From: a virus
Taxonomy: Duplodnaviria > Caudoviricetes
Virus record (IMG/VR): IMGVR_UViG_3300005326_000292
Coordinates: 1 to 24,644 of that record
Length of the DNA: 24,644 nt
Reading direction: 5' to 3' (one strand)
Shown: positions 5,740 to 24,644 of the stretch, piece by piece
How positions within the stretch are numbered: the stretch's first letter is position 1
Layout of the letters: each line of letters starts with the position of its first letter
The notes under the pieces: model-generated
What the model saw: the letters and a program-made list of their open reading frames with translations, nothing else
What the model was told of the DNA's origin: nothing
Database searches by the model: none
Position numbers and translations under genes: made by a program

Positions 5740-6247
5740 CTTCGGAAAGATCATGGCAGTACTGAACAGCAGTTACAAAACGCAGCCGCTTGCCAAGGAA
5801 ACATTGGAAATCTGGTATCGCTCATTGTCTGACATTGATTACACTCTGGCGCAGAAAGCCGTTGAAAAGATTCTCCTGACCTCCAAGTTTTATCCGACAA
5901 TTGCAGAAATCCGGGAAACGTGCCTGTCGCTGATCGAGGGGAAGAAGGTTACAGGGTTGGAAGCCTGGGGGATATTCAGAAAGTATATAAACTTATACAG
6001 CACCGCCGAGAATTATGAGAAGTTGAAGCAAGATCATCCTGACATATATGCCCTTGTCCATGCAGTAGGCGGTAGGGAATTGTTATCTGGTAATGCGGAT
6101 TTTGTAAGACCGGAATTTGAACGGATGTACAACGAACACCGGGACACGCTGAAAAAAGAAAAGATGCTGCCGGCCGGATTCACGCAGGACGTTGAAAAGT
6201 TAAGGGGTACAATATACCGGCAGATTGCAGCCGGGGATGAGGTATAG
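5726..6247 (+). CDS. Replicative helicase loader/inhibitor (SPP1 G39P-like)
   Basis: EIWYRSLSDIDY...SKFYPTIAEIRE...EAW motif; directly after the initiator; probable start ATG 5726. Confidence 0.8.
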   Translation: MQRIDFGKIMAVLNSSYKTQPLAKETLEIWYRSLSDIDYTLAQKAVEKILLTSKFYPTIAEIRETCLSLIEGKKVTGLEAWGIFRKYINLYSTAENYEKLKQDHPDIYALVHAVGGRELLSGNADFVRPEFERMYNEHRDTLKKEKMLPAGFTQDVEKLRGTIYRQIAAGDEV

Positions 6248-6914
6248 ACAAATGACGTTCATTGATTTTTTCGCAGGAATAGGCGGTTTTAGATTGGGTA
6301 TGGAAATGGCTGGACATAAATGTGTCGGTCATTGTGAGATAGATAAATTTGCGGATAAATCATACAGGGCAATGCACGATGTAGGGGGGGATGAATGGTA
6401 TGCAGATGACATTAGAAGAGTTGATGCCGGGGATATGCCCGAAGCAGACTGTTGGTGTGGAGGGTTTCCTTGCCAGGCTTTTTCCGTGGCTGGCAAACGG
6501 AGAGGATTTGAAGATATGCGAGGAACTCTTATCTTTGAAGTATTCCGGCTTGCGGAACAAAGAAAACCCAAGATTCTTTTCCTTGAAAACGTGGCGGGAC
6601 TCCTTAACCATGATGGAGGACGGACCTTCGGAACAATCCTTTGTGGACTTTGGGAACTTGGGTATGATGTCCAATGGCAGGTGCTTAATTCTAAAAACTT
6701 CGGAGTTCCTCAAAACAGGGAAAGGGTGTTCATTATCGGACATCATGGAGCAGGAAGTGGACGAGAAGTATTTCCTATCTATGGCACAAACGGCAAAGCT
6801 ATTAAGAAGCATCAATCAGACATCAGTGGAAAAGGATATTTTAGCCAACAAGACAGAGTTTACGAATCAGGGGGGGGTAATGGGGTGCATACCTTCAACA
6901 AGGACGGAGAATAA
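6237..6914 (+). CDS. dcm: C5 cytosine DNA methyltransferase, N-terminal catalytic part (motifs I-VIII)
   Basis: DFFAGIGG (I), GGFPCQAFS (IV), FLENV (VI), PQNRERVFIIG (VIII); frame ends shortly after a G8 run. Confidence 0.9.
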   Translation: MRYRQMTFIDFFAGIGGFRLGMEMAGHKCVGHCEIDKFADKSYRAMHDVGGDEWYADDIRRVDAGDMPEADCWCGGFPCQAFSVAGKRRGFEDMRGTLIFEVFRLAEQRKPKILFLENVAGLLNHDGGRTFGTILCGLWELGYDVQWQVLNSKNFGVPQNRERVFIIGHHGAGSGREVFPIYGTNGKAIKKHQSDISGKGYFSQQDRVYESGGGNGVHTFNKDGE

Positions 6915-7074
6915 AGTTAATGTTTTGATTAAAAGTCCACAAGCTTTGTCTGATGGGGGGGTGGGTATTTCTTACTGCATCGACAGCAATTACCAGAAGG
7001 GAATCAACACGTTCGACAAATGCAGGAGGACACACATTCTCGATAGTGGGGAAGGATGGAAGGATGAAGAATAA
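6391..7074 (+). CDS. Overlapping +1-frame ORF in the MTase gene (resembles alternative-frame beta polypeptides of C5 MTases)
   Basis: 227 codons open; GMMSNGRCLILKTSEF...CSLSDIMEQEVDEKYFLS resembles the M.EcoHK31I beta type from memory; distal part carries TRD-like CIDSNYQKG. Confidence 0.6.
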   Translation: MNGMQMTLEELMPGICPKQTVGVEGFLARLFPWLANGEDLKICEELLSLKYSGLRNKENPRFFSLKTWRDSLTMMEDGPSEQSFVDFGNLGMMSNGRCLILKTSEFLKTGKGCSLSDIMEQEVDEKYFLSMAQTAKLLRSINQTSVEKDILANKTEFTNQGGVMGCIPSTRTENKVNVLIKSPQALSDGGVGISYCIDSNYQKGINTFDKCRRTHILDSGEGWKDEE

Positions 7075-7687
7075 AGAATACGCAAGTTGCTTGACAGGCG
7101 GTGGGCATAGCGGGGGAAATCATTCGGACATGGATCTGATAGTGCAACCATACAAACCGAATAGTGAAGGAAATGTGCTATGTATTGATGCAAATTATTA
7201 CAAAGGAGTTTTGGCACATCAAGACAGAACGGGAGTTTTGGAAGTCAGGCCAATTCTAACACCTGACCGAGCAGAGAAGCGCCAGAACGGGCGAAGGGTG
7301 AAGGAACCGGGAGAGGAAATGTTTACCCTGACGGGGCAGGATCGGCATGGGGTAATAATTACAGAAGCCACTAAGAAAGGTTACAACATTGCATATGAGG
7401 GTGACAGCATCAATCTTGCTGTGCCAGGAAGCAAGACAAGACGTGGCAGAGTAGGGGGGGCAATGGCAAACACACTTGACACCTCTTGTAATCAAGGGAC
7501 CATACAGAATGCAAGAATCCGCCGGCTTACTCCGAAAGAATGTTTCAGGCTTCAAGGATTTCCTGATGAATATTTCAACAAGGCGGCAACAGTAAATTCA
7601 GACAGCCAACTATACAAGCAAGCCGGGAATTCCGTGACCGTCAATGTGATATATGAAATCGCAAAGAGATTGGAGGTATACCTATGA
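7064..7687 (+). CDS. dcm: C5 DNA methyltransferase, C-terminal part (TRD repeats, motifs IX-X)
   Basis: RRLTPKECFRLQGFPD (IX), QLYKQAGNSVTVNV (X), TRRGRVG; ATG 7064 overlaps the stop of the previous frame (frame open from 6953). Confidence 0.88.
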   Translation: MKNKEYASCLTGGGHSGGNHSDMDLIVQPYKPNSEGNVLCIDANYYKGVLAHQDRTGVLEVRPILTPDRAEKRQNGRRVKEPGEEMFTLTGQDRHGVIITEATKKGYNIAYEGDSINLAVPGSKTRRGRVGGAMANTLDTSCNQGTIQNARIRRLTPKECFRLQGFPDEYFNKAATVNSDSQLYKQAGNSVTVNVIYEIAKRLEVYL

Positions 7688-10647: not shown

Positions 10648-10790
10648 CACAGCGCGGGGTTGATGTACTACGGCGATGGGTAAACCGGAATTGTCCTAGA
10701 CTAAACAGCAAGATACTATGGTGCAGCGAATGCACACTGTACATAAAAGGGTGTACGCATCCAAAAAGGATAAAGGGGGGAACAAGATGA
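10644..10790 (+). CDS. Small Cys-containing protein (48 aa, MTQRGVDVLRRW...CSEC...CTHP)
   Basis: Manually translated; ATGA overlaps at both ends, coupling it to maf. Confidence 0.55.
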   Translation: MTQRGVDVLRRWVNRNCPRLNSKILWCSECTLYIKGCTHPKRIKGGTR

Positions 10791-12583
10791 AGCATCAAGG
10801 TAATCCATACTATTCTGCGAATATGCAATCGTTACAACGTTACTATCCCTATGTGGCAAGGATAATACAAAAAGCGGACGATTTCCACGGCAAATACGAT
10901 GGAATGATCCTACAAGAGATCGATGATATATTTGATTCAATGAAATCATTGACCGCACAGCTTTCCGTATTCCTGGGATTTGGACTTGGAAATGAGGTTT
11001 TACGTTTCATGACGAAGCACGCCAAGAGAATCGATGGGGTATATATTTTAATCATCGAAAAGGATGTTTCGTTACTTAAAGCCGCCATGAAGTCACGAAA
11101 TCTAACAGAATTATTCCAGCACAAATATGTCCGGTTTATTGTGGGAGAACCAATCGAAAATTTGTTTTCCATCTTTCAGGCTTATTTGCAGCAGGAAAAC
11201 AAATATATGTTTTTGCGATCCGTGAAACCGATTTATGGCAAAGAAAGCGATGATTATTATGTTGAGGCATGGAGGACTTTCAAGGAAGCAGCGAAATACA
11301 CCATAATGAACTATGGAAACGACCCAAAAGATAGCTTGATCGGCGTTGAAAACATGTTGTCAAACGTCAACGTCATCATCAACAATCCTGGAATCAATTT
11401 ATTAAAGAATCAGTTTACCGGAAAACCTGCGGTGGTTGTTTCGACAGGCCCAAGCCTGGACAAGAACAAACATTTGCTTCATGGGCTGGAGGATAAGGCT
11501 GTGATTATCGCCGCAGATTCTGCGCTGAAGCCATTGCTGAAAATCGGTATCAAGCCCCACCTTGTAACCGCACTGGAGAGGGAAAAAGAGATTGTACAAT
11601 TGGTTGATGGACTCACCGCAGATGAAGTAAAAGACGTTTATTTAGCCGCGTGCCCGGTGGTTTATAACGAAGTCTACCAGGCATGGCCGGGTAAGAATAT
11701 TATCACTTACAGGAATTTTGACCACTTCAAATGGCTGAAAATCGACCGGGGGATACTGGACATCAAGTCGTCTGCTGGGAACATGGCGTTCAAAGTGGCG
11801 GAATATCTAGGGTGCAATCCAATTATTCTAATCGGTCAAGACCTTGCGTTGGCGGGCGAAAAGACAAACGCGGAAAACACCCCATTAGGAACCGAACAGG
11901 TCAGCTATTTACGGGAAATGCGGTACAAGGTCAAGGGGAACGTTGAAGATGAAGTCACCACCACCGCAAGCCTGAAACTATTCCTGAATTCATATATCGT
12001 AGACGTAGCGCAGTACAAGGGAAGGTGTATCAACTCCACGGAGGGCGGGGCATACATCGAAGGCACAAAGGTTATGCCGTTTGCCGAATCCATCATGAGG
12101 TTTATCAAAGAGCCGTTTAATCCACTGGAAAAAATCAAGTCCATCTTGGACACGTTCATCCCGGAAGAAAAAGCGGCGGAAAACGTATTATCCATTATCG
12201 ACAAGACCATTGATTCATTCAAAAAAATGTCTGACTTATGCAGCGAAGGGATGAAGATGTACGATGATCGCGCCGAGGAAATCAATCAATACGTCAAGGA
12301 ACCTGACTTTGAAAAGATGGAAAAAATCATGGCGCCGTTGCTGAAAATAAAAAATCAAGTCATTGGACTAGACCCCAGTAACTTCCAGCTTTTTTATGCA
12401 CATATAGCTCAAGCCTTTTATCTGAATCACGAACTGGAATTATGCAAGCAGTATGATCTACTGGAACCTGACACAGCTAGGGCGGAGATATTGAAACGGC
12501 AAAGAGAATGGTTTGAAATCATAGACGGCGTTGCAAAAGTATGCGTACAGGTATTGGAGAAAGGGAGGGAACAAATATGTTAA
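10787..12583 (+). CDS. maf: Motility-associated factor (Maf, DUF115/MAF_flag10) nonulosonate protein glycosyltransferase
   Basis: FLGFGLG N-terminal motif; PAVVVSTGPSLDKN; IIAADSAL...GIKPHLV; YLGCNPIILIGQDLA; INSTEGGAYIEGT; helical C-terminal region; about 598 aa from ATG 10787. Confidence 0.9.
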   Translation: MKHQGNPYYSANMQSLQRYYPYVARIIQKADDFHGKYDGMILQEIDDIFDSMKSLTAQLSVFLGFGLGNEVLRFMTKHAKRIDGVYILIIEKDVSLLKAAMKSRNLTELFQHKYVRFIVGEPIENLFSIFQAYLQQENKYMFLRSVKPIYGKESDDYYVEAWRTFKEAAKYTIMNYGNDPKDSLIGVENMLSNVNVIINNPGINLLKNQFTGKPAVVVSTGPSLDKNKHLLHGLEDKAVIIAADSALKPLLKIGIKPHLVTALEREKEIVQLVDGLTADEVKDVYLAACPVVYNEVYQAWPGKNIITYRNFDHFKWLKIDRGILDIKSSAGNMAFKVAEYLGCNPIILIGQDLALAGEKTNAENTPLGTEQVSYLREMRYKVKGNVEDEVTTTASLKLFLNSYIVDVAQYKGRCINSTEGGAYIEGTKVMPFAESIMRFIKEPFNPLEKIKSILDTFIPEEKAAENVLSIIDKTIDSFKKMSDLCSEGMKMYDDRAEEINQYVKEPDFEKMEKIMAPLLKIKNQVIGLDPSNFQLFYAHIAQAFYLNHELELCKQYDLLEPDTARAEILKRQREWFEIIDGVAKVCVQVLEKGREQIC

Positions 12584-13380
12584 AACTAGGTATTATCGGA
12601 ATTTCGGAAGGTAACGGACACCCATATTCATGGGCGGCAATATTCAACGGTTATAACCCAGATGCATATTGCCTATATCCAGAAATTGTTGAATATCTGA
12701 GCAAACACAAAGGTGAATGCATACAAGGCGCAATGGTGCGAGGGGTGTGGACACAAGATTTTGACGAAACACTTAAAATAGCTGAATTTGCAAAAATTAA
12801 TGGAGTATACGCCACGACATATATGTATGGCATGAAAGAACTGGATGCTATTCTTCTCGCCCGTGACGATGACACGCATTACGACCTTGCCAGGCCATTC
12901 CTTGAAGCTGGATTGCCCATATACATCGACAAGCCTTTAGCCTATGCGGTCAAGGAAGCAAAAACAATCTACGGCCTTGAACAGTATCCCGGACAAATCT
13001 TCACATGTTCTGCGTTACGATACGCAAGGGAATTCCAGATTGACCCCGCTATTATAAAAGATGTTGACCTGATCGAGGGGATAGTGCCGAAGGACTGGAA
13101 AAAGTATGCCGTTCACGTTATCGAACCCGCTTTGTTGATGCGGGGAAATCTTAAAATTCCCATGGTATTCCACGCCAACAGAGAGGGACCTATCAGAATT
13201 ATTCTACGCAGAGGAAATAAGGATGATATCACATTGACCTTTGAAGATAGTTTTTCATGCTTCAAAAGCGCATTACAGGAATTTGTTGACATAGTAAACA
13301 GGAAAGAAAACCCAATCAAAAGGGACTTTGTAATGGAGGTTGTAAGGATCATCGAAAACGGGGAGGGTAAACCGGTATGA
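12577..13380 (+). CDS. Gfo/Idh/MocA family oxidoreductase
   Basis: KLGIIG...NGHPYSW; DAILLARDD..H; GLPIYIDKPLA; CSALRYA; YAVH. Confidence 0.8.
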   Translation: MLKLGIIGISEGNGHPYSWAAIFNGYNPDAYCLYPEIVEYLSKHKGECIQGAMVRGVWTQDFDETLKIAEFAKINGVYATTYMYGMKELDAILLARDDDTHYDLARPFLEAGLPIYIDKPLAYAVKEAKTIYGLEQYPGQIFTCSALRYAREFQIDPAIIKDVDLIEGIVPKDWKKYAVHVIEPALLMRGNLKIPMVFHANREGPIRIILRRGNKDDITLTFEDSFSCFKSALQEFVDIVNRKENPIKRDFVMEVVRIIENGEGKPV

Positions 13381-14000
13381 ACATGTTATTGACAGGCGGC
13401 ACGGGACTGATAGGAAGCGTTATAAAAACGGAATTAGAAAGGCAAGGGCATGGAGTAATAAATCTGGCACGTGGGAAAATGGAGCTTTTTATTAAAGGCA
13501 AATTTGATGGACTAGGAAATGTTGACACCTTCATCCACTGCGCCCGTGATCGCAAATACCTTGAATCTGCCAGCCGCGAAAACTGGGTGGGAGAATATAT
13601 AGTTGACGTGGTTGCAGCCTATGAAATATCTATGATGCTGAATGAGTTATGCCCGTCACTCAAAAATATCATCTTGATTTCCAGCGCATACGGTATCCGT
13701 CCGGCGAATCCCAAGATCAGCAACAGTCCGATTCATTATGGCGTTGCAAAAGCAGCCCAAATTCATCTAGCAAAGGAATTGGCGGTCAGGCTTGCGCCGA
13801 AAGTGCGGGCGAACTGCATTTCGTATGGTGGCGTGGAATCGGACAGGAACACAGAGGAATTCAAGCAACAGTACAGCAAAAATGTCCCATTGGGCAGAAT
13901 GGCAACAACGAACGACCTGTTTCACGCAGTAGAGTATATTTTGAACAACGATTATATTACAGGACAGAATTTGGTTGTAGATGGCGGAATGACAATATAA
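13377..14000 (+). CDS. SDR family oxidoreductase (PtmA-like)
   Basis: TGGTGLIG; ISSAYG; YGVAK (YxxxK); VPLGRMA; YITGQNLVVDGG. Confidence 0.88.
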   Translation: MNMLLTGGTGLIGSVIKTELERQGHGVINLARGKMELFIKGKFDGLGNVDTFIHCARDRKYLESASRENWVGEYIVDVVAAYEISMMLNELCPSLKNIILISSAYGIRPANPKISNSPIHYGVAKAAQIHLAKELAVRLAPKVRANCISYGGVESDRNTEEFKQQYSKNVPLGRMATTNDLFHAVEYILNNDYITGQNLVVDGGMTI

Positions 14001-14012
14001 CGGAGGGATAAT

Positions 14013-14237
14013 ATGAAAAAATACAATGATAATCCTATCACATCAGACACAGTACAATATATTTGTTTGTGGCACAAAGAGGGCGAGAGCATTAATGAAA
14101 TAGCTGCAGCAATGTACAGGAAGGTTGAAGACGTACAGGAAATTCTACGCCGCGCCATGGCAACAGGGTATTGTGACGGGGTAAGCAAAATGTGCGCAGA
14201 CGGGTATCATGGGCTGAAAATGAAGAAGGGGGCGTGA
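14013..14237 (+). CDS. Small phage HTH-like protein
   Basis: GESINEIAAAMYRKVEDVQEIL; GGAGG RBS. Confidence 0.6.
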   Translation: MKKYNDNPITSDTVQYICLWHKEGESINEIAAAMYRKVEDVQEILRRAMATGYCDGVSKMCADGYHGLKMKKGA

Positions 14238-14390
14238 TTATTTTTGTTCGGATTGTTCAAGGAGTTTTCTCATAGTGGAAACAATAAGGCTATTCATGGA
14301 TCGGTCATCTTTTTTTGCCAATGCCATAATTTTTTCCTTCATCCCTTTGGGGAAATTCACAGTTACAGACTCAACATTGTCTGACTTCAT
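14238..14390 (-). CDS. Arc-family ribbon-helix-helix DNA-binding protein (50 aa)
   Basis: Manually translated: MKSDNVESVTVNFPKGMKEKIMALAKKDDRSMNSLIVSTMRKLLEQSEQK; beta-strand VTVNFP plus A...RSMNS.IV Arc signature; GAGGTG RBS; not in the ORF track. Confidence 0.82.
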   Translation of the reverse strand: MKSDNVESVTVNFPKGMKEKIMALAKKDDRSMNSLIVSTMRKLLEQSEQK

Positions 14391-14419
14391 GGCTACACCT
14401 CAAAAACAATAGTAAAAAC

Positions 14420-14472
14420 AGTATACCATAGTTAAAATATAATTTGCAAGAATTCATGAAAAATGATACAAT
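14420..14472. promoter_or_regulatory. Divergent sigmaA-type promoters sharing a palindromic -35 (TTGCAA, 14444-14449)
   Basis: + strand: TTGCAA-17 nt-TACAAT (14467-14472) with TGn extension; - strand: TTGCAA-18 nt-TATACT (14425-14420) with TGn extension; AT-rich gap. Confidence 0.65.
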
Positions 14473-14544
14473 AAGGCTATAAAAGTTATGGTACTTTACA
14501 TTGATAATTACGGCAATGTTAAATAAAAAGGGTGGGGTGATACA

Positions 14545-15375
14545 TTGCAATACAATGTTTTAATTGTAGGGGCAGGGGCAAAAGGGGCTTTATGTGATGC
14601 ACCAAATACGGAAAATTCCCATAAGTACATTTCATATGCACATGCGGTAAAAGATCATCCGGGATTCAATTTAGCAGGGTTTTACGACAACGACATTTCA
14701 AAAGCCGAAATTGCAACGCAAATATGGGGCGGAAATGTACATGATCAGATTCAAAATGATTATGACGTAATTATCATTGCGACACCGGATGCAACCCATT
14801 ATAATGTGCTGAAACTTCTTTGCGAAAGATATTTTGAATACCCGCGTCTTGTCATCTGCGAAAAGCCTATATGCACAGACTTACGCCAAGCCTATGAAAT
14901 TATAAACCTGTATGAGAAAAAAGGGATACCGATTTTATGCGACTATACAAGGAGATTTATACCGGAGTATAGGCAGATGAAGGCCGAAATTGATTTCGGG
15001 AAAGCGGGAAAGTTCCTGAAAGGTTATTGTTGCTTCAACAGGGGAGTTTATCACACAGCAAGTCACTTCATAGACCTGGCGCTATGGTTCAACGGAAACA
15101 TGGACAACATCATTATCCAAGAAGTCCCAACAGAATATAGATGGGTGTTTCAATGGGGGATGTTCTATGAGAATGAATTTTACTCTGAACACGCAGTAAA
15201 TTTTGTGAAGAATCCAAGAGTTGACACGGTGTATGACAGACACCTATATTTTGTCATGGAAAATGCCTGGAATTACCTTGAAGGCAAGGAACCGCTAATA
15301 TGTACCGGAATGGATGCGGTGAAAGCCTTGGAGGTATGCGATAGATTTACGGGGGAAAGGATGGAATGTGAATGA
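14545..15375 (+). CDS. Gfo/Idh/MocA family oxidoreductase
   Basis: VLIVGAGAKG; DVIIIATPDATH; VICEKP; YTRRF; HTASHFIDL; TTG start with RBS. Confidence 0.88.
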   Translation: MQYNVLIVGAGAKGALCDAPNTENSHKYISYAHAVKDHPGFNLAGFYDNDISKAEIATQIWGGNVHDQIQNDYDVIIIATPDATHYNVLKLLCERYFEYPRLVICEKPICTDLRQAYEIINLYEKKGIPILCDYTRRFIPEYRQMKAEIDFGKAGKFLKGYCCFNRGVYHTASHFIDLALWFNGNMDNIIIQEVPTEYRWVFQWGMFYENEFYSEHAVNFVKNPRVDTVYDRHLYFVMENAWNYLEGKEPLICTGMDAVKALEVCDRFTGERMECE

Positions 15376-16493
15376 GTATAGGCAAAGAGGAACGCGAAGC
15401 TGTACTGAGAGTAATGGATAGGGGGGTATTATCGGGTTACAGGGGTTCATGGGGCGATTGGTTCTATGGTGGCGAGGAAGTGCAGGCTTTAGAGAAGGAA
15501 TGGGCTTCATATTTTGGCGTTAAGCACGCTATCGCTTGCAATTCTGCAACATCTGGTTTGTGGATTGCGCTGGCGGCTACCGGGCTTACGTCACCTTATG
15601 ATTGGTCGCACAATCTTAATTCAGATGTAAATGGATGTGATGAAATTATAGTGACCCCATGGTCAATGACTTGTTCTGCGTCCATGCCGTTACATTTTGG
15701 TGCTGAACCGGTATTTGCAGATATAGAACCTGATTACTTTTGCCTTGACCCAAAGAGCGTAGAGGAACGCATTACGCGATACACAATGGCGATTCTGGTG
15801 GTTGATTTATTCGGGATGCCTTATGATGCAGATGCCATTAATGCCATTGCAGAAAAATACAGTAAAAAATATAAGCATAAAATCTATGTGATAGAGGACG
15901 CAGCGCAAGCGTGCGGGGCGACATACAAAGGAAAATATGCCGGAACACTTGGGGATATCGGTGTATACTCCTTGAACGTCCATAAGCACATCCAATCTGG
16001 CGAGGGCGGAATCGTTGTCACGGATAATGATGAACTGGCTTTCAAAATCCGTTTAAGCATGAACCACTCCGAAGCTGTAATCAATAGTATGCCGGAAGAT
16101 GAAAATGTATGGAGCAGTTGCCTTGAACTTGTCGGAATGAATATGCGCATGACGGAGCTTTCCGCCGCAATAGCTCGCGAACAACTGAAAAAGTTGTCCG
16201 GTATCCTTGCTGTATATCAAGAGAACGCCAAGAATTTCCTTATCAAAATCCGTCCTGGATGCACAAGTGCGTTTTATAAATACGCATGGGTACCCAAGAC
16301 ACATGATGATGAACAATATCTAGCGTATCTTATGATGAATGCGCAAGATAAATTCAACTTCAAGAAGCATTACATAGACCCGATTTATACAATGCCATTA
16401 TTTTCCAACTTAGGTTATGACCCGCACCTTTGCCCGACATGCGAAGAAGTCGAAAAGGATATCGTTCTGGCATGGTTCCGGGAGGTAGTATAA
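15372..16493 (+). CDS. DegT/DnrJ/EryC1/StrS PLP sugar aminotransferase (PseC/LegC role)
   Basis: CNSATSGL; PVFADI; VIEDAAQA; SLNVHKHIQSGEGG (catalytic Lys); GMNMRMTELSAA. Confidence 0.93.
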   Translation: MSIGKEEREAVLRVMDRGVLSGYRGSWGDWFYGGEEVQALEKEWASYFGVKHAIACNSATSGLWIALAATGLTSPYDWSHNLNSDVNGCDEIIVTPWSMTCSASMPLHFGAEPVFADIEPDYFCLDPKSVEERITRYTMAILVVDLFGMPYDADAINAIAEKYSKKYKHKIYVIEDAAQACGATYKGKYAGTLGDIGVYSLNVHKHIQSGEGGIVVTDNDELAFKIRLSMNHSEAVINSMPEDENVWSSCLELVGMNMRMTELSAAIAREQLKKLSGILAVYQENAKNFLIKIRPGCTSAFYKYAWVPKTHDDEQYLAYLMMNAQDKFNFKKHYIDPIYTMPLFSNLGYDPHLCPTCEEVEKDIVLAWFREVV

Positions 16494-17128
16494 TGAATCC
16501 ATTCCTCTCCAGTGAACGCCTACACCTATACCAACTCACCCCGGACGATGCCGAAAGGTATTATACGCGCCTGAACGATCAGACTACAACAAAATGGATG
16601 CAGCAGGGCATATACCCTATGACGCTTGAAAGATGCAGGGAATACATACAAAACGTCAATGGCTTGCATTTGGCAATAGTCAGAAAAGGGGAAGAAAAAG
16701 AATCGGTAAAACAAGGAATTACAAAAATGACCGACACTTTAAAATCTATTTTTTCAATGCCAGATGACGTTCAAGACATAATCGAAGAATCAAAAAAGTA
16801 TTGTGATTGTCATATCGGAAACATTACATTATCCAACATCCACGGCACTTTCCGAACGGCTGAAATATCTATAATCCTATGGGACGAAAGGGGTAAGGGC
16901 TACGGCACGGAAGCAATTAAAACACTTGTCAGCCACGCATTCAACCGCATGAACCTAAACCGCATACAGGCCGGGGCAGTAGTAGACAACATAGGCTGCA
17001 TCAAAGCATTTGAGAAAGCAGGATTTACAAGGGAGGGGGTATTACGGGAAGCGTATTACTGTGAGGGGAGTTATAGGGATACGGTGATTATGGGAATTTT
17101 GAAAAGGGAATGGGGTGCTGTGAAATAA
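16493..17128 (+). CDS. GNAT (RimJ/RimL-type) N-acetyltransferase with an internal insertion of about 40 aa
   Basis: HIGNITL; RGKGYGTEA; NLNRIQAG; FEKAGFTREGVLRE; TAATG coupling at 16491-16495. Confidence 0.88.
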   Translation: MNPFLSSERLHLYQLTPDDAERYYTRLNDQTTTKWMQQGIYPMTLERCREYIQNVNGLHLAIVRKGEEKESVKQGITKMTDTLKSIFSMPDDVQDIIEESKKYCDCHIGNITLSNIHGTFRTAEISIILWDERGKGYGTEAIKTLVSHAFNRMNLNRIQAGAVVDNIGCIKAFEKAGFTREGVLREAYYCEGSYRDTVIMGILKREWGAVK

Positions 17129-18414
17129 ACGGATTCTTGGAATATTCAATCACTCAAATACAAAAAGATATGGCAGACGGGAAGGTCAGTGAAAAGGACG
17201 TTGCCCAAATCTGCATTGACAGAGTAATTGAAATGGAACCATCCTGTCAGGCATGGGAATGCTTTGGCCTGAAAGATCAATGTCAACCCGGTCCGCTTCA
17301 TGGAATCCCCATCGGCGTAAAGGACATATTCAATACCGCAGACTTTCCCACGCAAATGGGAAGCCCGATATGGAAGGACTTCACGCCGGGGAACGATGCA
17401 AGGGCTGTGTATAACCTGAAAAGCAACGGGGCCATTGTACCGGGGAAAACAGTTACGGCGGAATTTGCCGTACATGCATTGGGGAAAACATTGAATCCGC
17501 ATGACCACAAAAGAAACCCAGGCACATCTTCCAGCGGTTCCGCTGTTGCCGTAGCAACCGGCATGGTTCCTGCGGCCATAGGCACACAAACGGCAGGCTC
17601 AATTGTTCGTCCGGCATCTTACTGTGGCGTGTATGGGTGTAAGCCATCATTCGGGCTGATACCGCGCACAGGGATGTTGAAAACCTGTGACACATTGGAC
17701 ACCGTGGGATTCTTTGTAAGCCATGCGTGCGATCTGAGAGTAATGCTTGACGCGCTGCGGGTGCATGGCAGGAATTATCCGGTGAGTCATGAGGCATTAA
17801 TGAACAGTAAAAGACAGACAGGTCCACAAAACAGACCATGGAAAGTTGCATTTGTACAAACAAATACATGGAATTACACCGAAGCATATTCAAAAAATGC
17901 ATTGCTTGGTTTTGCTCAATTGCTATATGATCACACAGTTCAATTACCTAAAATCATATCCGGCGCCCATGATATTCATGCCACTATTTATAACAAAAGC
18001 CTGTCGCATTATTTCCGGGAAGAATACAAAAGAAAAGAGCTTGTTTCGCCTATAATGAATGAGATCATCGAAAACGGAAACAGAATCACATATCAACAAT
18101 ATCTTGACGCATTACAGGCACAGGTTGAGATTCAGCAGGTTATGGATAGGTTTTTCAATGACTACGACATTATAATCTTACTTAGCACAGCCGGAGTTGC
18201 ACCATTGAGGGATGAACCCGAAAAGCCCGACCCTGCGTTGATATGGACATTGGCACATTTGCCAGTTATATCCGTACCGGCGTTTACACATGAAGGATTG
18301 CCGTTTGGGATTCAGGTTGTGGCACGGAAATATAACGATTATCTGTTATTCAGATTTATCGACCATTTGATTGAATCTGGATTGATACCAGAAGGGGTGA
18401 ATCCAAGATCGTGA
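17110..18414 (+). CDS. Amidase-signature family enzyme (GatA-like)
   Basis: GPLHGIPIGVKD (Lys); PGTSSSGSA; GTQTAGSIVRPASYCGVYG (Ser-Ser-Lys triad motifs); GLPFGIQVV. Confidence 0.9.
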   Translation: MGCCEINGFLEYSITQIQKDMADGKVSEKDVAQICIDRVIEMEPSCQAWECFGLKDQCQPGPLHGIPIGVKDIFNTADFPTQMGSPIWKDFTPGNDARAVYNLKSNGAIVPGKTVTAEFAVHALGKTLNPHDHKRNPGTSSSGSAVAVATGMVPAAIGTQTAGSIVRPASYCGVYGCKPSFGLIPRTGMLKTCDTLDTVGFFVSHACDLRVMLDALRVHGRNYPVSHEALMNSKRQTGPQNRPWKVAFVQTNTWNYTEAYSKNALLGFAQLLYDHTVQLPKIISGAHDIHATIYNKSLSHYFREEYKRKELVSPIMNEIIENGNRITYQQYLDALQAQVEIQQVMDRFFNDYDIIILLSTAGVAPLRDEPEKPDPALIWTLAHLPVISVPAFTHEGLPFGIQVVARKYNDYLLFRFIDHLIESGLIPEGVNPRS

Positions 18415-18683
18415 GCAGATTAATATTAACAGCTCATATGGTGTTTGAATATAAGGGTAAACAATATGAGGCTGATGATATATGGAATCACGAATGGATA
18501 AATGAAGAATACATAGAAGTAATGGAATTCTTTTGGACGGAAGGAGGAGGAGATTGCGATTGTAATAGATCATTATCCATAAAAAAGAACTATCCTGAAT
18601 TTCTAGAATTAGATTGTGGAGATGAAATAAACTTAGTTTCCATAGATATCAAATCAAAACCGTGGGGTGGTAAAAATGTTTAA
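18411..18683 (+). CDS. Acidic hypothetical phage protein
   Basis: WTEGGGDCDCNRS motif; GTGA overlap; no sugar-enzyme features. Confidence 0.65.
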   Translation: MSRLILTAHMVFEYKGKQYEADDIWNHEWINEEYIEVMEFFWTEGGGDCDCNRSLSIKKNYPEFLELDCGDEINLVSIDIKSKPWGGKNV

Positions 18684-19818
18684 AAACCTTCAATATTGCA
18701 CACGCTGTATAATGCCGTCCAGCCGCGAAGGGATACAATTTGACGAAATGGGGCAATGCCAGGCTTGTGTGTCGGCAGAGCAGAAAATACATATCGACTG
18801 GACAAAACGCCGCGAGGCACTTGACCGGATAGTTACCGAAGCCAAGTTAAAGGCGGGTGATAATTACGACTGCATTCTTCCTATAAGCGGGGGTAAGGAT
18901 TCTACATGGCAGATGCATATTCTTGCAAAGGAATTGGGTATGAAACCGCTTTGTGTTACCCACAATCATAATTGGTATTCCAAGACCGGATGGAAAAACC
19001 TTCAAAAGATGTTGGAAGTGTTTAACCTTGACCATGTAATGTTTACCCCTTCCAGAAGCCTTGTCAACCGGTGCGCCAAGAGATCGGTTGAAACCATCGG
19101 GGACGCCTGCTGGCATTGTCATATGGGGGTATCGGCCTTTACGTTAAAAATGGCAGTAGCCTATAAAATTCCTTTAATCGTATGGGGAGAATCCACCGCC
19201 GAGCATGGACGGGCGACATATGGTCAACCGGATAAATTTGACAGGGACTATTTTTTAAGAGTATCAGCCAAGTACACCCCAGAACAATTTGCCTGTGATT
19301 ACATTACATTGCGCGACCTGTTCCCTTATCAATCACCGTCCATTGAGGAATGTGAAGGACTTCATGGGATCCATTTAGGCGACTATATTTTTTGGGATGC
19401 CGAGAGACAGACGGAATTCATCAAAAAGGAATATGGATGGAAAGGGCTTGAAATCGAGGGAGCGTATAAGGATTACAAAAGCGCGGAATGTGCCATGGCA
19501 GGAATACATGACTTCTTGTGTTATCTGAAACGCGGATATTCCAGAGCGACAGTTCAAGCGTCAGATGACATCAGGGCGGGGTTGATGACTAGGGAAGAAG
19601 GATTCAAAATTGCCGAAAAGTACGAACGGATTTTTCCTGGCTCAATGAAGTATTTCCTTGAAATCACTGGGTTGACCATAGAGGAAATGTCGGACAGCAT
19701 TGAAAAGTTTAGGCCGGATGTCTTGAAGGGCGTAAGCCTGCCGGTGGACAAGGAATGGCGATGTATTCCGGAGGCTGGCAAGCCATATGTACAAAGGCTA
19801 ATAAATGGTGAGGAATAA
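18676..19818 (+). CDS. N-acetyl sugar amidotransferase (PseA/WbuX family)
   Basis: YCTRC.MP...CQAC; YDCILPISGGKDS PP-loop; CWHCH; WGE; DIRAGLMTREEG. Confidence 0.9.
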   Translation: MFKNLQYCTRCIMPSSREGIQFDEMGQCQACVSAEQKIHIDWTKRREALDRIVTEAKLKAGDNYDCILPISGGKDSTWQMHILAKELGMKPLCVTHNHNWYSKTGWKNLQKMLEVFNLDHVMFTPSRSLVNRCAKRSVETIGDACWHCHMGVSAFTLKMAVAYKIPLIVWGESTAEHGRATYGQPDKFDRDYFLRVSAKYTPEQFACDYITLRDLFPYQSPSIEECEGLHGIHLGDYIFWDAERQTEFIKKEYGWKGLEIEGAYKDYKSAECAMAGIHDFLCYLKRGYSRATVQASDDIRAGLMTREEGFKIAEKYERIFPGSMKYFLEITGLTIEEMSDSIEKFRPDVLKGVSLPVDKEWRCIPEAGKPYVQRLINGEE

Positions 19819-19835
19819 ACAAAGGAGGTAGTGGA

Positions 19836-20981
19836 ATGGTCAGAGTGGCAGCCGTAATCCCAGCTCGCGGTGGATCAAAACGTATACCGCATAAAAATAT
19901 CGTTGAATTCTGCAAAAAACCTATGATTTGTTGGACTATCGAAGCTGCGCGGGATTCGGGCATATTTGATGATATATGGATTTCCACGGATGACGAAATG
20001 ATAAAACAAGTCTGTAAACAATATGAATCGAACAAAATCCATATTATCAACCGTGAGACATGCAACGATGACCATTCCACCGTAAGTCAGGCGACCATTG
20101 CAACGTTAAAGCAGCTTGAAAAGATGGGGCATACATACGATACGGTTGTACAGCTCATGGCAAACTGCCCGAACAGAGGATGGGCGGATACACGGAATTC
20201 TTATGACAACTTCGTGGAGATAGGAAGTAAATTTCAGCTATCCTGTTTTATGTTTGGTTTTATGAATCCATGGTGGGCGGTAAAGATTAGCGAGAGGCCG
20301 GAACCGTTATTCCCGGAAGCGTTAAAGACACGCAGCCAAGACCTGCCAAAACTGTACTGCCCGACAGGGGCGATATGGATTGCGGACGTAAAGGCATTAT
20401 ACGAAGCTGGGACATTCTACGGGCCAAATTATAAAATGCACCCAATTCCATGGGAATCCGCTGTTGACATTGACGATATGGAAGATTTGAAATTCGGCGA
20501 GACAGTCAAACGGATGATGACGGAGGAAAAGAAGCAGGAAAACCACAAGATCATGCTAAAACGTACCATGGACATACTGAATTCTTACGACAAGCTGCAA
20601 AAGAAGGTGGAGCAGGACAAAGCGGACATTGATGACATGAAACAGGAGAAGTTTGACAAAACGACCTTCCATTTATCCCGCCGCCCGGAAGGCCCGCAAC
20701 TGGATGATGAAGTCAGACATTTACAGAAAATACGCAACCGTGAGCGCGGGATGCTGCGGACACAAAGGCTATTGGAACGTATAGGCAAGGCCATGGATGG
20801 CATGGGCGAGGATACGGAAGGGATACTGAAACTGAAATACATCGATAACATGAGCATAGACGAAATAGCGGAAAAACTGAATTGCAGCAGGCGGACAATT
20901 GAGCGCAAGCACATGAAACTATTGAAGAAAATGAAGGTATTGTTATATGGCGCGGATGCGCTGGAAGGGGGAGAAACGTGA
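19836..20981 (+). CDS. Fusion: acylneuraminate cytidylyltransferase (NeuA/PseF, aa 1 to about 226) plus RinA/ArpU-like phage transcriptional activator (sigma70 region 4-type HTH)
   Basis: IPARGGSKRIPHKN, KPMI.WTI, STDD, RSQDLP, SAVDIDDMED; then coiled coil and ILKLKYIDNMSIDEIAEKLNCSRRTIERK...LLYGADAL. Confidence 0.85.
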   Translation: MVRVAAVIPARGGSKRIPHKNIVEFCKKPMICWTIEAARDSGIFDDIWISTDDEMIKQVCKQYESNKIHIINRETCNDDHSTVSQATIATLKQLEKMGHTYDTVVQLMANCPNRGWADTRNSYDNFVEIGSKFQLSCFMFGFMNPWWAVKISERPEPLFPEALKTRSQDLPKLYCPTGAIWIADVKALYEAGTFYGPNYKMHPIPWESAVDIDDMEDLKFGETVKRMMTEEKKQENHKIMLKRTMDILNSYDKLQKKVEQDKADIDDMKQEKFDKTTFHLSRRPEGPQLDDEVRHLQKIRNRERGMLRTQRLLERIGKAMDGMGEDTEGILKLKYIDNMSIDEIAEKLNCSRRTIERKHMKLLKKMKVLLYGADALEGGET

Positions 20982-21598
20982 AATTAAAAGTATTATCCGA
21001 ACAAGACTGCGAGCAGGTAAGACTATGGCGTAACGAGTGTTTGGAATCCTTGCGGACACCGTTTCCGCTGACAAAGGAGCAGCAGGCAGAATTCTACCAT
21101 AACACCGTATGCAATAGGGCGGCACGGGCAAGGTATTGGGGGATACACATGGACCCATATGAAAAATGTCCGGACGGTGAATTAATAGGCATGTGCGGCA
21201 TAGAAAACATCGAGCAGGAGAACCGCCGGGGTGAAATCAGCATCATAATGGACCCTCAATGCCGTGGAGAAGGGCATGGCACACAAGCAGTTGAGCTATT
21301 GCTAGAACAGGGATTCATGTATCTGAATCTTGAAAACATATGGGGAGAAGTATACGAAAACAACCCTGCGATTGAGTTTTGGAAAAAGATTATAAAAAAA
21401 TACTCACCGGATTACGAACCGATATGGCTGGATTGCATGAAGTATTACAACGGGCAATATTGGGACGGTTTATGGTTTAACGTCGAAAAAATTGATTATC
21501 TAAAAGCAACAAAACCAACAATGGGGGCGTGTGCAGATACAGTTATATTTGATGAATGCTGTGGGGAGGAAAAGAATGAGCATATTTGGATTATTTAA
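20978..21598 (+). CDS. GNAT N-acetyltransferase (PseH-like)
   Basis: DCEQVRLWRN; LIGMCGI; RGEGHG; LNLENIWGEVYENN.AI.FW. Confidence 0.82.
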   Translation: MKLKVLSEQDCEQVRLWRNECLESLRTPFPLTKEQQAEFYHNTVCNRAARARYWGIHMDPYEKCPDGELIGMCGIENIEQENRRGEISIIMDPQCRGEGHGTQAVELLLEQGFMYLNLENIWGEVYENNPAIEFWKKIIKKYSPDYEPIWLDCMKYYNGQYWDGLWFNVEKIDYLKATKPTMGACADTVIFDECCGEEKNEHIWII

Positions 21599-21884
21599 AC
21601 TACAAAAGATTAATTTTGACATTGACGGATGCTACTTGAAAAACTATGGCCTTGGATGCTGGCCTATGCGGATTCCCCCAAGAACAGGCGAAAGATGGCC
21701 TGAAAAGTTGGCGCATATATTTAAAAGCGTTGACGAGTACATGATTGTGGACGCAAGAAGAAGGGAAGGAGAAAGATACCCGATGTATGCTGAGCCAATA
21801 TTGGCGCGGAGCTATTCAAGGCGTGGCATAATCAAGAAAATAGCGGAACTGGAACAGCGAGGGTGGGAGATAAGAGCATTGTGA
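21576..21884 (+). CDS. Hypothetical protein
   Basis: GGGGAGGA RBS before ATG 21576; no recognised motif. Confidence 0.6.
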   Translation: MSIFGLFKLQKINFDIDGCYLKNYGLGCWPMRIPPRTGERWPEKLAHIFKSVDEYMIVDARRREGERYPMYAEPILARSYSRRGIIKKIAELEQRGWEIRAL

Positions 21885-21897
21885 GGGAGGAAATCAT

Positions 21898-22548
21898 ATG
21901 AGCCGAATAATCATCGACATGGGCAGCGGCAACACTTGTCGCAATGACTTTACAATAGTCAAGCGCATGATAGACGAACTAAAAGCCGTGGATACAGGAA
22001 AGCATGAGATCATCATAAAATGGCAAATTTTTGAGAAAGCAGGGCAGAATATCGTCCTTCTTCCTGAAACATTCGACTATGCTTATGAATATGCGGCGAA
22101 ATTGGGTTACAAGACCACGGCGAGCGTGTTTGACCTGAACAGCCTGAAATTCCTGCTAGAATATGACATTCCTTTCGTGAAAATTGCCAATAGACGGGAT
22201 TTGGATTGGTTGATTGGTGAGGTGCTGAGGAAGATACCTATTTGTATCAGCATTGGAGAGCATGAGCCATCTATAAAATATTTTTACACAGATGGCTTTG
22301 CTTTTCCACTTCAAGGAGATATGAAAATGCATTGCATTTCAAACTATCCCGCGAGATATGATGATTACATAAAGGCATTTACGCCGGATCAGCTACATAC
22401 TGGCATAAGTGATCATACAACATGCTTCTCACTATTCAGGAAGTTTGAACCTGAATTAGTCGAATGGCATTACCGCCTTAATGATTCAACCGGACTTGAT
22501 GCAGGACCATTTGCACGTACACCCAAGCAATTGCGGGAGGTATTATGA
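21898..22548 (+). CDS. neuB: NeuB/PseI family nonulosonate synthase, minimal form (216 aa, no C-terminal SAF domain)
   Basis: KWQIF, ASVFD..S, FVKIA, HCISNYPA, GISDHT, VEWHY, G.D. Confidence 0.75.
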   Translation: MSRIIIDMGSGNTCRNDFTIVKRMIDELKAVDTGKHEIIIKWQIFEKAGQNIVLLPETFDYAYEYAAKLGYKTTASVFDLNSLKFLLEYDIPFVKIANRRDLDWLIGEVLRKIPICISIGEHEPSIKYFYTDGFAFPLQGDMKMHCISNYPARYDDYIKAFTPDQLHTGISDHTTCFSLFRKFEPELVEWHYRLNDSTGLDAGPFARTPKQLREVL

Positions 22549-22754
22549 TCCAAAGATATGATATCTACACGCCCGTTATTAACGATATTAAGCCTGATGA
22601 AAACGGAGAATGGGTAAGGTGGGAAGATATAAAGCACCTGATGCCGATTCACGAAGCATTGATGAAGTGTGTCGATAAAACGGCGGAAAGAATAATAAAA
22701 GGAACGACAAATATAAAACCAATAGGGATTATGAAAGATATAAGCAACAGATAA
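22545..22754 (+). CDS. Small hypothetical phage protein
   Basis: IQRYD...PDENGEWVRWED motif typical of phage mini-ORFs; ATGA overlap. Confidence 0.65.
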   Translation: MIQRYDIYTPVINDIKPDENGEWVRWEDIKHLMPIHEALMKCVDKTAERIIKGTTNIKPIGIMKDISNR

Positions 22755-22766
22755 AGGGGGCCAACT

Positions 22767-23738
22767 ATGGAACTAGGGAGCATATGTCCATATACACAGG
22801 AATGCATAAGATTTGTCAATACGGGATGCGACGGGATACATCATCAAGGATGTCCGGATAAGCCGGTGAAGGACAAGGAAGTAAACATCCTGGAAAATAA
22901 GACTATCCTTATTACAGGTATGACGGGAAGTTTTGGGACTGCTTTCTCGAAGTACATATTGAGTAAGAAGCCCCAAAAGATCATATGTTTTTCCCGTGAT
23001 TGGCTGAAGCAAAAGAATTTGCGGGATGAAATGGGCGATCCGTCAAATGTGCGGTGGTTTATCGGGGACATAAGGGACAAGGATAGACTCATCCGGGCAA
23101 TGAAAGATGTGGACTATGTGGTCCATGCTGCTGCGATAAAAGACCTATCAAGTTGCGAGTACAACCCAAGTGAATGCATGCTGACAAATGTAATTGGGAC
23201 ACAGAACGTCATAGATGCATGCATAGAACGCAGGGTAAAGAAATCTATTCTAATCTCAACAGACAAATGTGTATCACCTATAAACGCATATGGAACAAGT
23301 AAAGCTATGGCGGAGAAACTATGGATACAAGGGAATAAATATGCAGCCAGCGAAAGTATGGCGTTTTCCGTATGCAGATATGGAAATGTCATAGGTTCTG
23401 CCGGTTCGGTTTTACCTGTATGGAAAAAACTGATCGAGAATGGTGCAAAAGAACTGCCGGTCACAGACGAACGATGCACAAGATTCTGGTTCCCGATGCA
23501 GGATGCAATTGACTTAGTTCTAGATAGTCTGGAAAATATGAAGGGCGGGGAGATTTACATACCGCACATACCGTCTATCAGGATCATTGACCTGGCGACA
23601 GCTTTTGGACTACCGTATAAGGTTGTTGGTATTCGCCCGGGGGAGAAGCTGCACGAAGAACTTGACCAAGGGTATTCATCGGATAAGAATGAATTCCTGA
23701 CCGTGGAGCAGATCAGGGAAACGATAAATATGGCGTAA
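22767..23738 (+). CDS. pseB: UDP-GlcNAc 4,6-dehydratase (PseB/FlaA1-like) with a 40-aa Cys-rich N-terminal extension
   Basis: TILITGMTGSFG; FSRD.LKQ; HAAAIK..CEYNP; STDK..PINAYGTSK; RYGNVIGS.GSV; TRFW; GIRPGEKLHEE. Confidence 0.9.
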   Translation: MELGSICPYTQECIRFVNTGCDGIHHQGCPDKPVKDKEVNILENKTILITGMTGSFGTAFSKYILSKKPQKIICFSRDWLKQKNLRDEMGDPSNVRWFIGDIRDKDRLIRAMKDVDYVVHAAAIKDLSSCEYNPSECMLTNVIGTQNVIDACIERRVKKSILISTDKCVSPINAYGTSKAMAEKLWIQGNKYAASESMAFSVCRYGNVIGSAGSVLPVWKKLIENGAKELPVTDERCTRFWFPMQDAIDLVLDSLENMKGGEIYIPHIPSIRIIDLATAFGLPYKVVGIRPGEKLHEELDQGYSSDKNEFLTVEQIRETINMA

Positions 23739-23871
23739 TGCTGTATAAGTAAAATGTTTTGCTGGAAAACACTAATAAAACCATGGAATATTGCTAGATT
23801 TAATATTAGGTTGCGCCTTATGGCGAGGGTATACGCTGTATTATATTGGGGCGGGAATCGCAGCGTAAGAA
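23739..23871 (+). promoter_or_regulatory. AT-rich intergenic region; candidate late promoter/activator site
   Basis: Lies just before the HNH/packaging genes; short inverted repeats (tgtttt-gctgg-aaaaca; cgcc-ttat-ggcg) and a TATTAT -10-like hexamer. Confidence 0.4.
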
Positions 23872-24276
23872 ATGGAGAAAAGAATGTCACCCATGCGTCC
23901 AAAACATCAATGTCGATATCCAAACTGTTTTGAGTTAACAGACAAGACTTATTGCCAGGAACATGAACAGGCAGTAAAAAGGAAGTGGCAGAGGGACAAA
24001 GACAGACACAGAGGAACGGCAACCGAAAGAGGATATGGGCCTGAATGGAGAAAATATAGAGAGAACTATATCAGAGAACACCCTCTATGTGTGGAATGCC
24101 TGAAGGAAAGAATATACACTCCAGCAGAGCAAGTTGACCATATCAAGCCGGTGAATGGACCGGACGATCCGTTGTTCTGGGAACCGACGAATCATCAGGG
24201 ATTATGCGGAAGACACCATAGGATTAAGACCGCTAAAGAGGACGGAGGATTTGGGAATGATAAAAATAATCTTTAA
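23872..24276 (+). CDS. Terminase-associated HNH endonuclease (HK97 gp74-like)
   Basis: CRYPNC...YC.EH; RGYG..W; HPLCVEC; VDHIKP; FW...NHQGLC..HH..KT; true start may be 23884 or 23893. Confidence 0.92.
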   Translation: MEKRMSPMRPKHQCRYPNCFELTDKTYCQEHEQAVKRKWQRDKDRHRGTATERGYGPEWRKYRENYIREHPLCVECLKERIYTPAEQVDHIKPVNGPDDPLFWEPTNHQGLCGRHHRIKTAKEDGGFGNDKNNL

Positions 24277-24513
24277 ACACGATGGATTTGAGATAACGGG
24301 CCATGCCGGGTACGCAAGAGCAGGACAGGATATTGTTTGTGCCGCCGTATCAGCAATAGGATATACGGTCATAGGAGTATTGGAAAAGATGGCAAGCGGA
24401 AAGTATGAGGTATCGACAGCAAGAATGATTTGCAATGTGAGAGACATGAGCGAAACAGCAAGGGACAGATAGTGCAGGACTATGGGAAATGGGTGAAGAT
24501 TATGCAGGAATGA
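24257..24513 (+). pseudogene. prp: Prp (DUF464) ribosomal-processing cysteine protease homolog, apparently frameshifted
   Basis: GHAGYA..GQDIVCAAVSA catalytic His/Cys motif; ORF stops at 24472 (71 aa); Prp-like tail QIVQDYGKWVKI continues in another frame to TGA 24513. Confidence 0.7.
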
Positions 24514-24599
24514 TAATTGACACTTGCAGAACGAGAATGAAGAAAACTTCCATAGATTAACATATGAGCAATGGGAATAAGTGGGAACCAGCAAAGCCA

Positions 24600-24644
24600 C
24601 ATAGGTAGGGGCATCGAAATCCTTCAGACAAAAAGCCTAGAGAC
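24600..24644 (+). other. Candidate cos-proximal packaging sequence
   Basis: ggtaggggcatcgaaatcc...agac resembles the G-rich/AAATC/GACC sequence I recall between HNH and terS in cos phages; truncated by the window end. Confidence 0.4.

Follow-up and report, generated by a model that had tools for sequence, protein, structure and literature searches.

A CMP-nonulosonate synthetase and an activator-like domain of the Ltr type are encoded as one polypeptide of 381 amino acids (aa) by an uncultured phage whose DNA is available as IMG/VR record IMGVR_UViG_3300005326_000292 (Caudoviricetes); 24,644 nt of this record, referred to as the window, were read from the DNA alone. The fusion is real, old, and conserved. 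With a probability of about 0.6, we read its product as a single protein with two jobs, a NeuA enzyme and probably the sole Ltr-type late activator of the phage, with the two halves working side by side and neither controlling the other.

Domain architecture of the fused gene

The fused gene (positions 19836..20981, + strand) was assigned from profile matches and an AlphaFold2 (AF2) model. Its 381 codons form a single uninterrupted frame in the ORF list of the window, and the in-frame join without a stop reported in the preliminary description is thereby confirmed. The gene is preceded by a strong ribosome-binding site (RBS; AAGGAGGT, 19822..19829, + strand) with a Shine–Dalgarno (SD) pairing energy of −12.2 kcal/mol at the neuA start. 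No comparable site is present near the junction, where the strongest pairing at internal in-frame starts amounts to −3.3 kcal/mol. The ATGATG at 20514 is indeed present and devoid of an RBS, as initially noted. It is part of the junction (aa 215-249, 20478..20582, + strand), for which AF2 predicted one continuous helix.

The N-terminal half (aa 1-226, 19836..20513, + strand) was assigned to the NeuA/PseF-type cytidylyltransferases by profiles, motifs, and Foldseek comparisons. Residues 6-223 matched the PseF profile TIGR03584 with an E-value of 5e-45 and 154 bits, which is below the equivalog cut-off of 205.7 bits, and the match to PF02348 (NeuA-like) scored above cut-off. The motifs PARGGSKR..KN, STD, RSQD, and DIDD..D, which we take to be CTP-, metal-, and sugar-binding, are intact in the window and read identically in fused, separate, and chromosomal homologues. 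The best Foldseek matches gave target TM values of 0.83-0.86, with the CMP-Pse5Ac7Ac synthetase from Aeromonas (PDB 9ftc) as the top solved structure. Profile coverage, motifs, and fold agree with the original view that the NeuA/PseF domain is complete.

The C-terminal domain (aa 227-381, 20514..20981, + strand) is basic, with a pI of 9.06 (whole fusion: 7.6). Profiles and AF2 assigned it as an Ltr-superfamily activator-like domain composed of a helical hairpin and a sigma region-4 helix-turn-helix (HTH), and structure prediction thus bore out the initial domain call. Residues 224-374 matched the transcriptional regulator family phrog_36 (E-value 3e-17), the activator family phrog_248 was matched as well, and Sigma70_r4_2 (PF08281) was found above cut-off at aa 314-366; the HTH helices lie at aa 328-375 in the AF2 model of the fusion. 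This model reached a pLDDT of 92 and a pTM of 0.81, with just 10 of the 72 alignment rows being fused sequences. From the assignment to a RinA/ArpU type made in the preliminary description, the late-activator-like character held, with matches of the sigma70_r4/DUF1492 kind, and the specific family names did not: neither RinA (TIGR01636) nor ArpU (TIGR01637) matched in the window, and both stayed below cut-off in relatives. Among 123 members of the activator family, 89 matched sigma70_r4, 45 DUF1492, and 27 RinA (E-values up to 0.01). Structural neighbours of the activator domain were sigma70_r4, DUF1492, and activator proteins in BFVD, and DUF722/RinA in the Atlas. Taken by its profiles, the domain appears to be Ltr-superfamily-like and not RinA or ArpU proper.

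A search with the activator-family profile found no second such activator in the window, as had been stated before. In all five long virus records, the activator was the only strong family match and was located beside neuA, and the RinA/ArpU-like matches in these records, all below cut-off, fell exclusively on this neuA-adjacent protein. The late-activator-like identity is further supported by more distant loci without a sugar cluster: in 10 of the 11 examined (out of 21), terS and/or terL follow within 4 kb downstream of the stand-alone activator. In the window, the activator is located upstream of an HNH gene, the cos-like end and, as judged from relatives, terS-terL, with ~2.9 kb and three sugar genes between activator and HNH. 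The protein is likely the switch for virion assembly and the only Ltr-type late activator of the phage.

Recurrence, origin, and selection of the fusion

A Logan contig covers positions 19277-24644 including the junction with zero differences to the window; it stems from a run that may be the window's own source and represents an assembled contig, not raw reads. A second run had no coverage at the junction. Independent evidence comes from relatives: the same fusion is present in at least six other protein clusters with identities to the window ranging from 83% down to 38%. A word-index search yielded P0002 (83%), P0003 (61%, 12 members), P0004 (55%), and the N-terminally cut P0011, and a full HMMER scan added the fused P0197 (39%) and P0207 (38%) from within its 150 top-scoring matches out of 1517; the other two proteins longer than 300 aa among these 150 were HTH-repeat proteins. 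The fusion therefore recurs in related phages, which refutes an assembly artefact or the loss of a stop in one genome. Such an artefact, or a stop codon lost recently from one genome only, has virtually no chance left. The possible origin of the sole junction-spanning contig from the source sample would be in its favor, but fused clusters at 38-83% identity, the synonymous sites of which are saturated, speak against it, as does a junction that is short of ~20 codons relative to the nearest separate relatives. With the C-terminal domain as sole query, no match was obtained in viral contigs. A GenBank phage set (50,697 records) contained no match to the fusion as a whole, none to Maf, and just four weak matches to the activator HTH.

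Among the 18 non-duplicate loci holding both neuA and the activator, the two are fused in 6 (window counted) and separate in 12. In each of the latter, the activator start is placed no more than 29 nt ahead of the neuA stop and no more than 2 nt past it, and in 11/11 loci tested its SD sequence lies within the last codons of neuA (−6.9 to −10.3 kcal/mol). In the six fused loci, pairing at internal starts near the junction is no better than −3.3 kcal/mol, compared with −10 to −12 kcal/mol at the neuA start. Relative to the closest free activators, the fused forms lack the neuA stop, the activator RBS, and the first ~20 activator residues. A single frameshift at an ATGA overlap was ruled out for the window lineage, because it would not account for the loss of these ~20 codons together with the RBS; a small change is possible as the fusion event in other lineages, since free activators with a short N terminus exist. 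The earlier idea that the fusion locks the cluster into the phage genome found no support, because the 12 unfused loci keep the cluster as well.

In the AlphaFold models, the first helix of the free activator is 40 residues long, and the helix at aa 215-249 of the fusion (35 residues, pLDDT about 90-97) opens inside the last helix of NeuA; by this prediction, the terminal NeuA helix substitutes for the first half of the helix with which the free activator begins. The N-terminal stretch of the activator is dispensable, as free activators without it exist (P0171, P0172, P0183, P0186, P0187, L024, and L025), and these forms also weaken the notion that NeuA replaces a dimerization helix. Free relatives are mostly 140-200 aa long, and in locus L016 the activator is located downstream of an unrelated ORF. 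The linkers of the fused forms vary in sequence and have lengths of 30, 32, 33, 34, 37, and 40 aa, five of which keep the helical phase within 60 degrees (a weak and not independent agreement). In 18/18 loci, neuA and the activator follow each other without an intervening ORF, while about 43/70 of the remaining cluster junctions are longer than 130 nt; the loci are related by descent, hence these counts carry no p-value. The constant adjacency is explicable without protein contact, because the RBS of the activator is buried in the coding end of neuA.

A first tree placed all fusions in one clade (99/92). A single origin was contradicted once P0197, P0207, and P0183 were added, and at least two origins are then needed. 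On a tree calculated without the junction columns, the fused clade of the window (98/95) includes one free short activator, P0183, and P0197 and P0207 fall into a different clade on both the activator and the NeuA tree. Forcing all fusions together was mildly rejected (AU p = 0.041 and 0.039). Since the rejection is only mild and P0197 and P0207 are long branches, at least two fusion events are likely, not proven. Reversion to a free activator, or further fusion origins, are possible because P0183 nests in the fused clade. The trees of the two domains are broadly congruent. Being partial or almost identical to other rows, loci L021, L026, and L052 were left out of one enlarged tree, and L014, L050, and duplicate loci were left out of all trees.

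Both halves are under purifying selection near the level of unfused pairs. In four fused pairs with a dS of 0.63-1.2, dN/dS ranged from 0.020 to 0.059 in NeuA and from 0.027 to 0.165 in the activator; unfused pairs gave 0.039-0.095 for NeuA (6/7 estimable) and 0.050-0.095 for the activator (4/7 estimable). These low values suggest that both halves are likely still working. Between the window and L007, dN was 0.07 for NeuA, 0.18 for the activator, 0.19 for gnat2, and 0.27-0.34 for wbuX, neuB, and pseB. No fusion-specific NeuA residue was detected: each residue that is invariant in the 10 fused rows also occurs in at least 34% of 62 separate homologues. The term tolerated fusion, offered in the preliminary description, is even an understatement for a join that is fixed, recurrent, and under purifying selection.

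Two further observations concern junctions in this lineage. In the window and L007, 18 conserved codons run without a synonymous change at 20475-20549 (aa 214-238), the longest such run of the gene; it is not repeated in four other fused pairs and may represent a recombination tract or a cis element. A second neighbour fusion is present at 22767-22890, where a small Cys-rich ORF continues in frame into pseB, also in L007. This ORF is separate in L002 (11694-11870) and L003 (10535-10726), and the former RBS and start of pseB have decayed in the window and L007. With a second neighbour pair fused, the lineage of the window appears fusion-prone.

Sugar cluster, phage family, and candidate late promoter

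Related loci have the gene order maf-(oxidoreductases)-degT-gnat-(amidase)-wbuX-neuA-activator-gnat-neuB-pseB-HNH in common. The window cluster opens with a Maf/PseD-like putative nonulosonate glycosyltransferase (10790..12583 with the start chosen, + strand; the ORF opens at 10718) that matched PF01973 and, below cut-off, NF050051. Upstream of the fusion (12541..19818, + strand), profiles identified two Gfo/Idh/MocA proteins, an SDR, a DegT aminotransferase, a GNAT, an amidase, and a WbuX/PseA-like amidotransferase, with small ORFs inserted. Downstream (20978..23738, + strand), they identified a GNAT overlapping the fusion stop (20978-21598), a short NeuB (21898-22548), and PseB (22767-23738). 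A whole nonulosonate pathway with a Maf/PseD-like transferase is arranged around the late-activator gene, by the HNH gene and the cos-like end (10718-23738 in the window; loci L001-L028 and L050-L052), and this arrangement is possibly a bigger finding than the fusion. The glycan may be destined for a virion protein or for host flagellin. The NeuB has 216 aa and matches just the catalytic part of PseI/NeuB, with relatives being of similar length. An Arc-like ribbon-helix-helix gene on the minus strand (14238-14544) is located beside a 132-nt AT-rich gap, in which a promoter-like site (14444-14472) faces the downstream sugar genes; it may provide the sugar cluster, fusion included, with a second promoter.

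The HNH endonuclease (23872..24276, + strand) is of the cos-packaging type (phrog_144, E-value 3e-36) and is followed by a small ORF with a match to a peptidase family (24263-24472; phrog_4478, E-value 9e-13). The window ends at 24597..24644 (+ strand), 370 nt past the HNH gene, with a cos-adjacent G-rich motif that is common to the ends of nine related loci (seven or eight distinct contig ends) and likely marks the right end of the virion chromosome. A gene for the terminase large subunit is present at the opposite contig end in 3/5 long relatives, and terS begins at base 43-44 in two. Because the motif is common to contig ends and terminase genes are found at the opposite end, we infer a linear genome with cos-type ends. 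An integrase was found in the records of 3/5 long relatives. The phage family of the window, cos-type and often integrase-bearing, is apparently undescribed.

Other parts of these genomes deserve mention. A C5 methyltransferase is split over two frames, 6225-6914 and 6953-7687, and overlapped by an ORF of 227 aa (6391-7074). Two G8 runs (6870-6877 and 6955-6962) flank the break and suggest slippage, phase variation, or an error in a homopolymer. In relative G003, the terminase large subunit (L058:499-3144) has 881 aa and was matched in two stretches, suggesting an intein or another insertion. L050, L051, and L052 sit in genome bins labelled Paceibacterota or Patescibacteria, and a Bipolaricaulis label occurs as well; these contigs are likely mis-binned phage, because L051 matches the viral record G002 in both length and range. 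P0174 and the taxa of the Atlas matches hint at a possible Clostridia-like Bacillota host.

The gap between pseB and HNH (23739..23871, + strand) is a candidate late promoter. Its first ~50 nt resemble those of the closest fused relative, L007, and are without clear repeats in either. In the unfused L002 (12709-12790) and L003 (11562-11640), short repeats with a spacing of about 11-13 bp, then TTGACA, are found directly past the pseB stop, and these sites are the best candidate for an Ltr binding site in the family. Such an arrangement would be expected where an Ltr site closes the middle cluster. No clear direct-repeat array was found in the window gap, no repeats were found after the activator's own stop in the window, and between pseB and HNH, a stretch of at least 40 nt outside reading frames is missing in 6 of 10 loci. 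Scans for promoter and terminator consensus sequences gave no excess over shuffled controls (29 versus 36.3 and 12 versus 12.1).

Proposed function of the fused protein and comparison with known systems

The following scheme would account for a protein with two independent jobs. Separate but touching genes, with the activator RBS in the last codons of neuA, would be the ancestral-type state. The fusion would have been made at least twice, by an in-frame deletion between the sequences for two similar helices, the last of NeuA and the first of the activator, and one predicted continuous helix would link the halves. It could have become fixed because a bulky N-terminal partner leaves the C-terminal HTH unhindered. 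CMP-sialic acid synthetases are homodimers; the fusion would accordingly be expected to be dimeric, presenting two HTHs suited to Ltr-type direct repeats. The NeuA half would make the CMP-sugar for the Maf transferase of the phage, and the activator half would turn on HNH-terS-terL as well as the genes for structural proteins. The outcome would be a fixed 1:1 co-expression of sugar-donor supply and late switch, which unfused phages likely reach by translational coupling. Independence of the halves is likely, judging from the unfused majority, the short free activators, the lack of fusion-specific residues, the variable linkers, and a GST-tagged RinA that bound its promoter specifically (available text of PMC3152322). 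Constant adjacency argues against it, as do congruent trees and recurrence, which are typical of functionally linked partners, and the pTM of 0.81, which suggests a defined inter-domain geometry.

An alternative is a metabolite-gated late switch, in which NeuA would pass the CTP/CMP-nonulosonate state via the continuous helix to the activator. We regard such gating, one of two options raised in the preliminary description, as unlikely. The same holds for its family-wide form, with NeuA as an allosteric partner that acts in trans when separate and covalently after the fusions, and for its consequence that late genes and assembly start only when CMP-nonulosonate is at hand for decorating virion or host surface in a Maf-dependent manner. 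Gating is conceivable because neuA and activator are never split by inserts, in contrast to the other junctions of the cluster, and because the linker looks rigid, being predicted as one helix with its phase kept in most linker lengths. The likely repeated origin of the fusion fits as well, and so does the slow divergence of NeuA and activator between the window and L007, although gnat2 resembles the activator in this respect. However, the majority of relatives are unfused, the activator of L016 follows an unrelated ORF, distant family members operate without any sugar cluster, no residues are specific to the fusion, and the buried RBS also accounts for the adjacency. In addition, Ltr proteins are reported, in the accessible part of PMC3753634, to require no other phage protein. 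If gating were true, a phage late-gene switch would be wired to a sugar-nucleotide enzyme.

A somewhat smaller likelihood is given to a C-terminal domain that regulates but is not the late switch, controlling the sugar cluster or another promoter, which would explain its position. In line with this, three sugar genes separate it from HNH and it does not directly precede terS, repeats are absent past its stop and form no clear array in the window gap, most of the loci compared lack a free gap before HNH, and its scores stay under the RinA/ArpU cut-offs. On the other hand, it is the only strong family match in the five long records and the sole target of their RinA/ArpU-like matches, nearly all examined distant relatives precede terminase genes, and L002 and L003 carry the repeats and TTGACA past pseB and before HNH. 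It is improbable that a free activator, arising from an internal start (ATG at 20514, 20517, or 20553) or by cleavage, is formed as a second product next to the full-length fusion and works alone as in relatives. In-frame Met codons near the junction in 6/6 fused loci and the synonymous-free run shared with L007 are consistent with it, but the internal starts have no SD sequence, Met positions vary between lineages, the run is absent from the other fused pairs, and the junction is predicted as a well-ordered helix, not a loop. A single protein with two independent jobs therefore remains our preferred reading.

What is new is likely the pairing of two known domain types, conserved and recurrent. 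Neither this fusion nor a phage Maf cluster was found in print in a literature survey for which most papers were represented by the openings of their abstracts. By this finding, an Ltr-type activator can have an entire enzyme attached, and phages with and without the fusion provide natural pairs for testing whether a late programme is tied to a metabolite. With the Maf and nonulosonate genes of the family forming a complete pathway around the gene for the late activator, it becomes testable whether virions or proteins of the host surface are decorated with sugar in the lytic phase. Phage-borne nonulosonate or glycosyltransferase genes have precedents in the Lake Biwa virus LBVG_26, which carries neuA, neuB, and neuC according to the parts seen of 10.1101/655167, and in mycobacteriophages with virion glycosylation, reported as cited in the portion at hand of PMC11256854. 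In contrast to these, the window cluster has a Maf-type transferase, is family-wide, and is built around a late-activator gene.

The Ltr superfamily comprises RinA, ArpU, LtrA/sigma70_r4, LtrB/DUF1492, and LtrC, which are described in the accessible sections of PMC3753634 and PMC3152322 as small (about 130 aa), stand-alone proteins encoded directly upstream of the terS promoter. Like these, the window domain is basic, helical, and present in a single copy with a C-terminal sigma region-4-like HTH, and its gene appears to close the middle region ahead of HNH/terS/terL, although three sugar genes intervene. Unlike them, it is carried by a 381-aa fusion without an internal RBS, has an N-terminal enzyme of 226 aa, and is located inside a sugar cluster without repeats past its own stop. 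With NeuA/PseF/LegF enzymes such as that of Aeromonas (9ftb/9ftc), the N-terminal half shares fold, motifs, and a context of dehydratase, aminotransferase, GNATs, NeuB, and Maf; it differs in being phage-encoded and fused to a DNA-binding domain. Other C-terminal NeuA fusion partners, such as the esterase of E. coli K1 and the HAD domain of vertebrates, are enzymes, not regulators. Enzyme and DNA-binding domain are combined in one chain in NadR (HTH plus NMN adenylyltransferase), BirA, and PutA, where the ligand state is coupled to repression of the own pathway. In the window protein, by comparison, the HTH is C-terminal and belongs to a putative activator.
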